Shown piece after piece: positions 4,031-56,500 of a stretch of DNA of 64,000 nucleotides; the stretch's first letter is position 1, and the number at the start of each line of letters is the position of its first letter. Under the pieces are notes generated by a model, which saw only the letters and a list, made by a program, of their open reading frames with translations, was not told the DNA's origin and searched no databases. The stretch is from Eledone cirrhosa (Eukaryota), in assembly GCA_964016885.1 (NCBI GenBank), contig OZ024746.1:80786001-80850000 (forward strand), given 5' to 3'. The position numbers were made by a program, and so were the translations under genes.

Positions 4031-4161
4031 TGAAGATCTGCGAAGGTGAAACATTTGTTCTCGGTATGGTGAACTAACTGTTGTGTAACCACTTCTACCT
4101 AACTCACCCCTGGGACTGATTGCTCTACCACTACGGATATTACCTTCCAGTGTTCCACCAC
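4031..4161 (+). mobile_element. Family C element, 5'-truncated copy
   Basis: TGAAGATCTGCGAAGGTGAAACATTTGTTCTCGGTATGGTGAACTAACTG... aligns to 54045-54176. Flanked by TA repeats. Confidence 0.7.
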
Positions 4162-4380
4162 TATATATATATATATATACATATATACACACACACACAC
4201 ATATATATACACACACACATATATATGAGAGAGAGAGAGTAAAAATGCAGCTTCTAAGTTTGTCATCTGATTCACTAAGTCACATAGCCCATAAGTAATT
4301 AGATTTTCCTTTCTCAATAACACCCACTCTCTCTTTTTCTTTCTCTTACTTCCCCATGTATGTGATATATATATATATAT

Positions 4381-4716
4381 CATCATCATCATCATCATCA
4401 TGATTTCATTTTACGTCCACTTTTCCCTGCTTGCAAGGGTGGGACGGGAACTGATTCTGGCTTGATTTCTACAGCTGGATGCCCTTCCTAACACCAACCT
4501 CATTTACAGTGAGTGTTGGATGCTTTTTTTGCCGTGGCACCTCCACGACCACTTTGCAGTGGAATGATAGGGACCCCAGTCCTTATCATCTCATTTCTAC
4601 AGCTGAGTAAACTGGAGCAATGTGAAATAAAGTGTCTTGCTCAAGGAAACAACACATCACCCGGTCTGAGAATTGAACTCACAACCTTTCGATTGCAAGG
4701 CCAATGCTCTAACCAC
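4381..4716 (-). mobile_element. Same tRNA-SINE family
   Basis: Reverse-complement match to 35369-35694. Confidence 0.85.
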
Positions 4717-5689
4717 ACACATATATATATATATATATATATATATATATATATATTTCTCTCTCTTTCTCTCTCTCTATATATATATATTTATTTGCTA
4801 TTGAAATGTTACCAGCTTAACTGTTGGGCAAAGAATCCCTTTAATGATGTCTACACCCTACATTCCTTTTGTCTTAACTAGTAACATCTCATCCATATAT
4901 ATATGTATACATCATCATCATATCTGTTTTTCTATACTCACATGGTTTCGACATGTCCTTCTCACCACTATATATATATATATATATATATATATATATA
5001 TATATATATATATATATATATATATATACAGTTTAGTTTTCATACAAAAGTGTATAATTTTGCATGTGCACTCCATTTTTTTAAACATTGCATACAGGTT
5101 AAAAGTGCACCTGTGCAACAAATGCAGTTAATATTGCACTCATTCTGTTACTTGCACGCAGTTGCAAGTTCATCACACTTATATATTATATCATAGTATT
5201 TTTTTTTTTTTAAAATTGCAATTTTCATTGCTGTAAATGTAAATGTATTTTGACATATATTCATACAGGCAATATATATGTATTGTCATATATTCATATA
5301 GGCATATATTTATGTGTGGATCTTATTTAATTAGTTGTGCTTCTACTTATAACCATGTGACTAGTGATATGACTAGTTGATGTAGTCTTGTCGACTTTGT
5401 CTCTGTCATCTTAACACACTCTAACACTACGTGTTTCATTAAAGACACGTCAATTACAAAACTACGAAGCCATGTGTTGGTTTATTCTCTAGCTTCTAGT
5501 TGAGATTTAATCAATAACTGCTGTGTTTGTTAAATTCAATTTTGTCTTATAACCTGAAATAACCTTATTAAATGACTTATTACTAACTAGAAAATCTTTT
5601 ATTAGTGAAATACATTAGCACATTTTCTGTGTAATAAATGAATCAAAACAAAAAAGTGTTTAAAAATGTAACAGTCTCATATAATGATT

Positions 5690-6035
5690 TCTGTTTTAAG
5701 CACAAGGCCAACAATTTTGGGGTAGAGGAAAGTCGATTAAATAGACCCCAGTGCATTACTGGTACTTTATTTCATCGACCCTGTAAAGTTAGCTGTGGCT
5801 TGATTTTATAAAAATAGTTTCTGATTTAGGCACAAGGCCAACAATTTTGGGTAAAGGGAAAATCAATTAAATCAACCTCAGTGCATTACTGGTACTTCAT
5901 TTTATTGACCCCGTAAGGATGAAAAGCAAAGCTAACCTTGGCAGGATTTGAACTTAGAATGTAAAGGGACATAACTATCTGCTGCAAAGTATGTTGACTG
6001 ACACTCCTCAATACTGCCAATCCACTGTCCTTAGC
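5690..6035 (-). mobile_element. Second SINE family, with a tandem partial duplication
   Basis: GCACAAGGCCAACAATTTTGGG...CAGTGCATTACTGGTAC block occurs at ~5700 and again at ~5830. Confidence 0.7.
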
Positions 6036-54396: not shown

Positions 54397-54495
54397 TGAT
54401 GAAGGCATACCATAATTTAATGTGGTATCCCTGAAATATGTATTATGAAATAAATATGGTTTTATAAATATAGTTTCCATTTATTATTAATATCG
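54397..54495 (+). mobile_element. Solo 5'-truncated pLTR of the same PLE family, with a hammerhead remnant
   Basis: TGATGAAGGCATAC...GTATCCCTGAAATATGTATTATGAAATAAATATGGTTTTATAAATA...TAATATCG aligns to 42684-42781. Embedded in (TA)n. Confidence 0.85.
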
Positions 54496-55092
54496 TATAT
54501 ATATATATATATATATATATATATATATATATATCTGTATATATATATATATATATATATATATATATATATATATATATATATATATATATGCATCTGT
54601 ATATATATATATATATATATATATATATATGCATATGTATATATATATATATATATATATATGCATATGTATATATATATATATATATATATATATGCAT
54701 ATGTATATATATATATATATATATATATATATGCATGTATATATATATATATATATATATGCATGTATATATATATATATGCATGTATATATATATATAT
54801 ATATATATATGCATGTATATATATGTATATATATATATATATGCATGTATATATATGTATATATATATATATATGCATGTATATATATGTATATATATAT
54901 ATATATGCATGTATATATATGTATATATATATATATATGCATGTATATATATATATATATATATATATATATATGCATGTATATATATATATATATATAT
55001 ATATATATATGCATGTATATATATATATATATATATGCATGTATATATATATATATATATATATATATATATGCATGTATATATATATATAT
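54496..55092. repeat. (TA)n array periodically interrupted by GCATG
   Basis: Direct inspection. Confidence 0.9.
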
Positions 55093-55902
55093 ATGATACA
55101 TTTTATTACTAATTATATCTAAATGTTTCTTCTCTCTTCATAATGTATTTTTAACTCTGATACTGGTTCAGTCTAGTTCAACTGAATTGGTCTGTCCCAG
55201 TCATTCATTGAGCAACATCGGTGAAGTTGGCACCCTTAACTCACAGTTGGGTGCGGATGCATTCATGTATATATGTGTGTGTCCGCATGTATCTGTGTGT
55301 TTCTAAATGTATTAATAACTCCCTCTGGTCGAGCAATCTTTGAAGTGTGGGGACAACTGGAAAGCTTCCATTACTCATACTTCTCGCCTTCTTCACTACC
55401 TCTTCTACGGCCCCGATATGAATACCCCCTCCGCCTCCGTGGTATTTTTTTCGTGGTTATAAGAGGCTTAGCTCTGTTTCTCGACCGTTATATCGCGTGA
55501 CTATCTCCCCCTCCGCCTTTTGGGATTCTTTCTCACGTCGTGTAGACGCGTTCTTGAGACTAGTAAAATGAGGTATCCTCTTGATAAGTCGGCAGACCTC
55601 GCAAGGACTCTATATCTTTGATATATTGTTTTTGTTTATGCCACGAAACTACGTAGTCGAGGAATTTAGGAACAGTTTAGGTATGATACATTTTATTACT
55701 AATTATATCTAAATGTTTCTTCTCTCTTCATAATGTATTTTTAACTCTGATACTGGTTCAGTCTGGTTCAAACTGAATTGGTCTGTCCCAGTCATTCATT
55801 GAGCAACATCGGTGAAGTTGGCACCCTTAACTCACAGTTGGGTGCGGATGCATTCATGTATATATGTGTGTGTCCGCATGTATCTGTGTGTTTCTAAATG
55901 TA
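55092..55902 (+). mobile_element. Element family D (~590-bp unit with 220-bp terminal direct repeat, degenerate hammerhead)
   Basis: 55092-55311 is nearly identical to 55682-55902. TCCTC-TTGATAA-...-GAAA-CTACGTAG-TC-GAGGA lies at 55576-55663. Inside (TA)n. Confidence 0.72.
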
Positions 55903-56106
55903 TATATATATATATATATATGCATGTATATATATATATATATGCATGTATATATATATATATGCATGTATATATATATATATATATATATATATATATA
56001 TGCATGTATATATATATACATGCATGTATATATATATATATGCATGTATATATATATATGCATGTATATATGCATGTATATATATATATATATATACATG
56101 TATATA

Positions 56107-56500
56107 TGTAGGAGGTGAGTTTTATTGTAGTACAATAAAGCAATGCAGATATCGGATAAGAAGCACTCTACAGTTTGTAGGACTGGAGTATACATAATAT
56201 ATAAGAACAAAAGATGGTTAAAAGAGTTCCATGTATTTTATTATGCGCATTTCAAAAACAAATATCATCATGCAATAATATTTGTGTTTTCATCAGATAA
56301 AACAAGAGGACATGATATGAAGGTTAAAAAACACTTGTCGATAGTTCAGTTTTAAATCAACATATGAGAAGTAGTTTTAGATTGATGTGTGATATTGGGA
56401 AAATATTTTATTTAGAGGGGGGTGGAAAGGATGAAAAAAAAATGCGCATAATAAAATACATGGAACTCTTTTAATCATCTTTTGTTCTTATATATTATAT
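56107..56500. mobile_element. Family B element, second copy
   Basis: Same left end (TGTAGGAGGTGAG) and right end as 34441-34760. Inverted arms at ~56194-56252 and ~56440-56500. Confidence 0.8.
56236..56302 (-). ncRNA. Type I hammerhead ribozyme (family B, minus strand)
   Basis: The plus strand reads TTTTAT-TA-TGCGCA-TTTC...TCATCAG-ATAAAA, the reverse complement of an intact core. Confidence 0.8.

Follow-up and report, generated by a model that had tools for sequence, protein, structure and literature searches.

The window, a stretch of 64,000 nucleotides from the genome of Eledone cirrhosa, very probably holds the truncated ends of five protein-coding families of Penelope-like elements (PLEs; families P, B, C, E and F) together with two non-coding tandem families (A and D) that PLE proteins are likely to have copied in trans into TA microsatellites. 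Read directly from the DNA are the hammerhead motifs, the links to open reading frames (ORFs), closed units of 442 and 591 nt, two fixed 3' ends per family, inverted pairs made of one long and one short arm, and TA flanks. The overall arrangement is already known and its members are new; the RCUC...GAGY stem described below is the one new, testable candidate for a cis-signal. A first-pass annotation of this DNA had proposed that type I hammerheads are dense and varied here and are associated with PLEs and (TA)n, and this is borne out. It had also taken most of the families for non-coding mini-elements, a view that holds for A and D and fails for P, B, C, E and F, which are linked to PLE ORFs; for these five of the seven families its fallback (truncated ends of autonomous PLE families) turned out to be right. 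Of the isolated hammerheads that lie in this genome's TA tracts, the majority are stubs of coding PLEs, not mini-elements.

All hammerhead motifs annotated earlier are present, as six intact type I cores (42683, 26454, 34660 and 54044 on the + strand; 39623 and 56296 on the − strand) and as variant, damaged or cut copies. With CUGANGA and GAAA cores, stems I–III and a UH site they have the features of type I hammerheads, and self-cleavage is predicted. A type I descriptor matched six times, against a mean of 0.017 (maximum 1) in 60 block-wise dinucleotide shuffles, none of which reached six; the test is not blind, as the descriptor was composed after the motifs were known and permits the U.U found at the base of stem II in families A, C and E. 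The loosest descriptor, run with no shuffle control, gave one probable chance match in the window, at 44752. No Rfam hammerhead model is among the matches listed (150 of 294) in a scan of the window, and those listed are microsatellite noise and one HDV-like match. The palindromic stem III attributed to most motifs is perfect in P, B, A and D, and is found neither in the common form of C nor in E. Stem I is weak in E and absent in F. At 4031 and 54397 the microsatellite cuts the core at U4; we considered truncation at exactly this position as a pattern and dropped it, with no further case among the fetched loci. The D core at 55581 reads UUGAUAA; it is not degenerate and represents the family's own U3:A8 core. 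It was missed by our first descriptor and recovered by a looser one; scans for a CUGANGA core would miss family D because of this U3:A8 pair.

The coding PLE suspected in the window is family P, a 5'-truncated Hydra-type element at 39518..42875 (+) that matches the full copy L087 at 95%, with a breakpoint at 39664/39665. An inverted pLTR arm with the short end lies on the left and a direct pLTR with the long end on the right, both ending in TA. The open part of the ORF (557 codons, 39652..41325, +) encodes a reverse transcriptase (RT) with YRDD, a CxCx5C linker and, at its C-terminus, a GIY-YIG domain, and full copies encode 737 aa in a single ORF with YRDD followed by IIY...YVG. The direct pLTR carries a hammerhead at 42675..42740 (+; core CUGAGGA at 42683, palindromic stem III, predicted cut after 42732) and the inverted arm another at 39566..39631 (−; core 39623, predicted cut at 39574), while a pLTR fragment of a related subfamily (89%) lies inside a TA tract at 54397..54503 (+), cut at U4 of its core. 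Among the scored matches to the family 67/78 have no internal stop, at 95–100% identity, and the family is young. Pfam scans of the P ORF and a PDB search with the single ORF sequence gave no match; the best PDB match of a P profile is a retron RT (E 0.007), and the homolog P0110 carries PF00078. Assignment of P to the Naiads was rejected, as its endonuclease is C-terminal and Naiads are without canonical hammerheads. The genome still contains dozens of open ORFs for putative helpers.

Families B, C, E and F are likewise 5'-truncated ends of coding PLEs, and each continues upstream into a PLE ORF in other copies. Family B, a second coding Hydra-type PLE, is present as an inverted pair at 34420..34765 (+), its long end on the left and its short end on the right, with the core at 34660 and a predicted cut after 34714, and as a copy at 56106..56501 (−; core 56296, predicted cut at 56242), whose long end is at 56106 and whose short inverted arm spans 56440–56501. 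Family C is the truncated end of a third coding PLE at 54032..54177 (+), which has its core at 54044, a predicted cut after 54074 and its long end in TA; a fragment cut at U4 lies inside a compound microsatellite at 4031..4161 (+). The C-terminus of a PLE ORF lies less than 1.5 kb upstream on the same strand in 9/20 B loci and 5/20 C loci. The motif at 53906 belongs to a fold-back of family E (53854..54032, unstranded; short arm left, long arm right) with two damaged cores, CUGGUGA at 53912 (−) and CUGAUCA at 53920 (+). It represents an older pLTR subfamily belonging to a fourth coding Hydra-type PLE, and E sequences lie downstream of their ORF in 8/8 long loci. Family F, at 11063..11303 (−), includes the motif at 11209 and is an old PLE 3' end outside TA, with an intact core at 11245 (−) that forms no good stem I; its copies are about 80% identical to each other, and the upstream sequence reads as GIY-YIG in two of 15 loci (L143 and L146). 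Its endonuclease has CxxC inside GIY-YIG, and F is not of the Hydra type.

P, B, C and E, in contrast, carry protein motifs of the Hydra clade. CxxC..E is present in all four, and CxH by pattern in P, C and E and by reading of locus L051 in B. DKT (for DKG) occurs in P, B and E, the N-terminal RIRWRAF motif (R for K) in P and E, and the CxCx5C linker in P, B and E, the latter being decayed in C, of which the sampled copies lack the DKT/RWK region. None of these families has CCHH inside GIY-YIG, and all four combine insertion in (TA)n, a pLTR hammerhead and inverted truncated arms.

Families A and D are of a different make-up. Family A, at 26135..26770 (+), comprises about 1.4 units of a 442–450-nt non-coding repeat with its long end in TA and a hammerhead whose core lies at 26454, whose stem II has U.U at its base and whose predicted cut follows 26484; a further fragment at 34770..35093 (+) has no hammerhead and carries a small inverted arm. 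Family D, at 55092..55903 (+), comprises 1.37 units of a 591-nt non-coding repeat, also with its long end in TA, and its hammerhead has a 10-nt palindromic stem III and a predicted cut after 55658. Both units close on themselves head-to-tail, and the longest ATG ORF on the circle has 47 codons in A and 75 in D. As short, ORF-less monomers in tandem, each with a single type I hammerhead, they have the sequence make-up of non-LTR retrozymes.

One could still read A and D, like the other families, as ends of coding PLEs, their tandem units being partial pLTR duplications and their ORF-bearing copies lying outside the sample. That every family would be the 3' end of a coding PLE is what we found for five of the seven, and loci were taken as the best 40 places per BLAST query rather than at random, which favours full non-coding units. 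Yet A and D are closed head-to-tail units, D arms reach about seven units (dimers to about 7-mers were seen) with no ORF across 9.9 kb of the array locus L193, and an ORF end within 1.5 kb upstream was found in 0/20 A loci, 0/23 D loci and 0/30 loci of G, the sister family of D (0/73 combined). D and G share 60% identity along the entire unit and the units of A and family 8 align end to end, which implies that non-coding units have persisted as units. This reading is therefore already largely refuted, and we consider it very improbable. PLE ORF pieces beside A at three loci were rejected as partners: TA tracts lie between A and the pieces at L116 and L117, and the piece at L118 belongs to family E. 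Beyond simple repeats, the A and D units have no sequence homology to the sampled coding families, which are a fraction of the PLE families of the genome.

Copies of D are 99–100% identical and dispersed over many contigs, an identity that points to a very young family. The U3:A8 pair is found in 67/67 D cores (from overlapping loci), in 48/49 G cores and in two further families found in flanks. Between D and G, three of the nine tested hammerhead pairs change on both sides and 36/36 cells are paired, in an alignment of only four related rows with a structure drawn by hand. Units of A, D and G fold better than shuffles (z −6.0, −5.6 and −4.4, respectively). Among the sequencing runs listed as containing D none is identified as RNA. 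Apart from one closed 620-nt D contig at depth 8, runs X3 and X4 yielded only the commonest repeat; contig depth does not equal copy number, and these contents fit trace host DNA and have no bearing on expression. Run X1, in which single-copy stretches have a depth of about 6, resembles low-coverage DNA. Go-back joints in D contigs are expected from genomic tandems alone.

The signature of PLE integration is seen in the ends. Each family has two fixed classes of 3' end, long and short, with tails of 60–170 nt, and inverted pairs join one long with one short end in 42/45 cases over all families (A 4/5, D 2/2, G 7/7); on a BLAST map, 5/5 inverted D arrays do so. The proposed association with (TA)n is upheld: 170 of the 190 mapped 3' ends, from seven families, abut (TA)4+, compared with 9–11% of random positions, and for 10/11 element stretches in the window at least one end is no more than 3 nt from such a tract; only 11063–11303 is farther off, at 352 nt. 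That A, D and G bear this signature lends sequence-level support to their mobilisation in trans by PLEs. A competing account would make A and D PLE-derived satellites, inserted once in PLE-like fashion and then amplified locally at the DNA level by unequal crossover, with the hammerhead as inactive baggage. Local amplification of pLTR-derived units is proposed in a 2026 preprint (10.64898/2026.07.22.740005), and two changes that recur in single units of both arms of the L193 array could mean gene conversion. We nevertheless find this account improbable: near-identical arrays are scattered over many contigs, they end at the same two positions in TA, inverted arrays with a long and a short end fit one-step integration, and the core and helices covary between D and G.

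Just past their 3' ends, D and G have in common with the Hydra-type families P, B, C and E a short stem, RCUC...GAGY. This 4-bp motif, spotted by eye, is present at 9/13 ends (absent at the long ends of B and E and at both ends of A) and at 3/9 usable ends of families examined later, in a set of 10 ends from which family 17 was left out (wrong end assigned); one of these three belongs to a relative of P. In RNAfold the stem is weak or not formed at several sites. As the stem lies 3' of the start sites in all these families, D and G most likely use Hydra-type proteins, a suggestion based on end pattern and motif together; for A, which has no such stem, a PLE helper is likely from the end pattern.

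In vitro, an anole PLE uses its GIY-YIG domain to nick AT-rich DNA, and it begins reverse transcription at an internal position of the RNA, either of two sites downstream of the hammerhead (PMC11167929). By analogy with this biochemistry, the elements of the window would be nicked in and primed internally in the same way. If one start site were used on each DNA strand, an inverted pair with a long and a short end would result, early stops would leave hammerhead-only stubs (B, C, E), and on ORF-less A or D RNA the enzyme would read through successive units and produce tandem arrays. Monomers would be released from multimer transcripts by the hammerheads, which would probably act as dimers via the palindromic stem III. 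Circles of D RNA are a plausible template, and they are the least supported step of the scheme. Counting against the scheme, variants within D arrays give a mixed picture, hammerhead cleavage was dispensable for the anole PLE in vitro (PMC11167929), and 8/9 Xenopus retrozyme dimers did not cleave (10.64898/2026.07.22.740005).

Mobilisation by PLEs might instead draw on long, uncleaved read-through transcripts from arrays already in the genome, with a helper perhaps from another clade that has CxxC in GIY-YIG, such as F; this overlaps with the explanation we prefer except for template and helper. We see an appreciable chance that it is correct, given that the anole PLE acted mainly on unprocessed RNA in vitro (PMC11167929), that all inserted copies examined run past the predicted cut site, that the same TA tracts contain further GIY-YIG types and that A has no RCUC...GAGY stem. 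The 10-nt palindromic stem III of D, however, with a duplex of −12.9 kcal/mol, should favour dimeric cleavage of multimers, and one private variant is constant throughout the L194 array, being present in all seven segments that cover its position. We put forward tentatively a more specific proposal, in which D and G would form an active clade of RNA circles that have a U3:A8 core and are made by the ribozyme, recruit Hydra-type PLE proteins through the small RCUC...GAGY stem just past both reverse-transcription starts, and are copied by rolling-circle reverse transcription from both target strands at once. If true, this would name a cis-signal and a helper enzyme for an animal retrozyme.

The closest known relatives of the coding families are the Hydra clade of PLEs (Craig et al. 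2021, PMC8557442), which includes Hydra-1_Obim of Octopus bimaculoides and was already reported in Octopus and on (TA)n. Shared features are the C-terminal GIY-YIG, RW[KR], DKT, the CxCx5C linker, CxxC/CxH around E and N, a pLTR that carries a type I hammerhead, (TA)n as target and inverted 5'-truncated arms, and the U.U at the base of stem II (A, C, E) is found in 14/26 Hydra rows of File S2 by our own count. Units of P and E are longer (3.8 and 4.5 kb, compared with "generally <3 kb"), P has RWR instead of RWK, and the hammerheads differ in sequence from the Hydra-1_oBim motif. Non-autonomous PLE partners with head-to-tail copies are also known from Chlamys (MRC1; PMC8557442), but these share 3'-end sequence with their helpers, and no such sharing is detectable for A and D. 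Cervera and de la Pena (2014, PMC4209133) described single motifs in dispersed positions and pairs on opposite strands left by truncated PLEs, a palindromic stem III that serves dimer cleavage and U3-A8 covariation in PLEs of Schistosoma mansoni (about 1,300 hits). All recur here, with the difference that U3:A8 is the mark of a tandem clade that is young and non-coding (D, G) and is found in the two further families from flanks as well. Like Poseidon PAc of the anole, whose tail is set by two RT start sites within the RNA (Frangieh et al. 2024, PMC11167929), our families have two ends, but their tails are longer than its 30–40 nt and the starts precede the RCUC...GAGY stem rather than an AC-rich loop.

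The non-LTR retrozymes of animals (Cervera and de la Pena 2020, PMC7229834; Li, Clavereau and Pollet 2026, 10.64898/2026.07.22.740005) resemble A and D in being strongly folding, non-coding tandem monomers with GC below 50% and one type I hammerhead per unit that occur beside PLEs; the sizes of A and D fall within the 51–972 bp range of the preprint, and axolotl HHR_Amex2 also has U.U at the base of stem II. D and G differ in their U3:A8 core and 57–62-nt stem II, and A and D, known here from genomic sequence alone, lack the pLTR homology to sampled coding families that is described for 21 Xenopus cases. The consulted passages of the retrozyme literature hold no discussion of a two-end tail or of long/short inverted pairs, and the word "tail" is absent from the preprint text consulted. 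Mobilisation of retrozymes by PLEs has been argued from co-occurrence and pLTR similarity (PMC7229834; 10.64898/2026.07.22.740005), and both this mobilisation and the role of PLE hammerheads are open questions in the field. Here two non-coding clades bear the two-end PLE signature alongside a young coding family whose ORFs are open, which makes the helper, the start sites and the cis-signal testable in vitro with natural sequences.

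The window sequence is AT-rich and abundant in TA microsatellites, and every hammerhead motif listed in the first-pass annotation was found at the place it had given. A descriptor for type I hammerheads, composed after the motifs had been seen, returned six intact cores (26454+, 34660+, 42683+, 54044+, 56296− and 39623−), whereas 60 shuffles gave 0.017 on average, in keeping with the high density claimed. The core at 55581 (family D) reads UUGAUAA. Two copies, at 4031 and 54397, are truncated at U4; both cores of the fold-back at 53906 are damaged, and 11245− has a core and lacks stem I. 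Every family is a repeat found throughout the 3.0 Gb genome; the first-look candidates (A 3212, D 896, B 1781, C 2970, E 1843 and F 1473), 40 of which were scored per family, are not copy numbers. About 20 more hammerhead types are nested in the same TA tracts, and hammerhead matches of all types number 359 in the fetched loci (L001–L229; 0.98 Mb, overlapping and TA-biased).

The proposal that these motifs form non-coding mini-elements held for A and D, which close on themselves with no ORF end upstream in the loci sampled, and was not supported for P, B, C, E and F, which are linked to ORFs: judged by sequence, most hammerhead families (B, C, E and F besides P) are ends of coding Penelope-like elements (PLEs). 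The P ORF (39652–41325) covers the 3′ portion of the coding sequence for a PLE protein of 737 aa, and 67 of its 78 scored genomic matches lack an internal stop, with all at 95–100% identity, which indicates a young family. Full P copies are 3.8-kb units in the order pLTR–ORF–3′UTR–pLTR. The protein carries RIRWRAF, DKT, YRDD, a CxCx5C linker and CxxC/CxH, followed by a C-terminal GIY-YIG without internal cysteines; among its homologues listed with an organism name, only Argonauta hians appears, which makes an octopod host probable. Family B adjoins an ORF about 50% identical to that of P (four long loci), and C lies shortly 3′ of the end of an ORF 30–44% identical to it (three long loci); of 20 loci of each family, nine (B) and five (C) have the end of an ORF on the same strand less than 1.5 kb upstream. 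A fourth ORF family goes with E, whose window copy belongs to an older subfamily (about 79% alike): in 11 of 25 loci E lies inverted on the 5′ side of the ORF, and in all eight extended loci it lies directly downstream, beyond a long TA/TG-rich UTR. In two of the 15 F loci the sequence upstream leads into a decayed GIY-YIG domain, of the type that contains CxxC. Single and opposite-strand motifs have already been put down as probable truncated PLEs (Cervera and de la Peña, 2014; PMC4209133). The 3′ UTR of the E elements (L182–L188) is 2–3 kb long and, being TA/TG-rich, may allow them to spread their own target sequence.

The A unit is 442 nt with a longest ORF of 47 codons, and the D unit 591 nt with one of 75 codons; no ORF end was found upstream of A (0/20 loci), D (0/23) or its sister family G (0/30), overlapping loci included. 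Copies of D are 99–100% identical (40 scored of 896 candidates) and its arms reach about seven units (L193). Family G (L200–L229) is tandem, with a unit of about 580 nt that is 60% identical to D over its whole length (alignment score 403; highest score among shuffles 192). The core pair is U3:A8 in 67 of 67 D matches and 48 of 49 G matches, a variant known in hammerheads of Schistosoma PLEs (PMC4209133), and both sides have changed in three of nine hammerhead pairs tested between D and G. A CCCUCCGCC box, possibly an internal promoter element, occurs twice in both. Two further U3:A8 families (stem III CCGG, nine matches; CAAGACCUUG, one match) sit in fold-backs (L047:2167, L056:677–991, L073:1305). 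Family A has a sister with a 467-nt tandem hammerhead unit (L123, L212; 321 against 161) and a weak one of 310 nt (L208; 130 against 122). A and D showed no relatedness to each other (score 122, shuffled mean 121), and homology of either to any sampled coding pLTR was not found.

Each family stops at one of two fixed distances 3′ of the predicted cut: near +57/+143 in P, +53/+136 in B, +38/+103 in C, +30–36/+97 in E, +220/+285 in A, +80/+245 in D and +65/+238 in G, aligned distances that take in a few bases of TA overlap. The suggested association with (TA)n is upheld, as 170 of 190 ends adjoin (TA)4 or longer against a background of 9–11%. Inverted pairs combine a long and a short end in 42 of 45 cases (long–long two, short–short one), and we infer that reverse transcription would start once per target strand; as to the template, D-array variants give evidence in both directions. 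That two internal RT start sites make such a tail has been shown, and the tail called unique to PLEs (Frangieh et al., 2024; PMC11167929), and therefore A, D and G, by their sequence ends, bear the mark of PLE integration though they encode nothing.

In the first 10 nt or so of template beyond the end, RCUC and then GAGY occur at 9 of 13 ends checked (both ends of P, D and G and the short ends of B, C and E) and are absent at the long ends of B and E and both ends of A, with a chance expectation of 2–7% per site from shuffles. In families examined later the motif was found at three of nine usable ends; three of the six misses came from relatives of A and one match from a relative of P. The two P sites differ by a compensatory change (ACUC/GAGU and GCUC/GAGC). 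Because it was spotted by eye and folding is weak, RCUC...GAGY is offered only as a lead to a candidate cis-signal. Palindromic stem III duplexes (−12.9 kcal/mol in D, −10.5 in B, −4.8 in A and −3.2 in P) are compatible, as modelled, with dimeric cleavage. Hammerhead cleavage was dispensable in vitro for an anole PLE (PMC11167929), and eight of nine Xenopus retrozyme dimers were without cleavage (2026 preprint, 10.64898/2026.07.22.740005).

Elsewhere in the window, an HDV-like fold at 52169–52240 (−) matches the Rfam CPEB3 ribozyme at 37.8 bits (gathering score 35), retaining P1 (with G.U), P4 and the catalytic C, with one mismatch each in P2 and P3. It has one match in the genome, and CPEB-type RRM matches lie on another contig (C2) and not here; Pfam gave no match in 104 minus-strand frames, and no literature joining an HDV-like ribozyme with octopus was found. 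It is possibly a decayed retroelement ribozyme. Decayed LINE pieces lie at 43006–45262 (with an RVT_1 match at 43833–44150), 18621–18959 and 60235–60597 on the minus strand and 9463–9765 on the plus strand; by eye, 60235–60597 resembles the C-terminus of a long ORF in L113. Very abundant short repeats, by their very high summed depth in sequencing run X1 (51650–51735, 51930–51990, 52370–52480) are probably SINE pieces, and tandem arrays without hammerhead cores occupy 61908–62633 (169-nt unit) and 23560–23975 (54/108-nt).

PLE hammerheads, (TA)n targeting by the Hydra clade of PLEs, retrozymes and U3-A8 are already in print; the weight of the finding lies in the PLE signature on retrozymes and in a testable start-site motif. 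Searches joining octopus with retrozyme, hammerhead or Penelope returned no cephalopod retrozyme, and Repbase-type libraries may name A or D otherwise. A 2026 repeat annotation of O. vulgaris reports 31 recently active Penelope-like families (PMC13282606); ribozyme and retrozyme are absent from its main text, and A or D could be listed in its supplements by a different name. Compared by motif features, the P protein has the set by which Craig et al. (2021; PMC8557442) describe the Hydra clade, which is reported to combine (TA)n targeting with hammerheads and to include Hydra-1_Obim of Octopus bimaculoides. Families A and D agree with the definition of non-LTR retrozymes in PMC7229834, and likewise with that of the 2026 preprint (10.64898/2026.07.22.740005).
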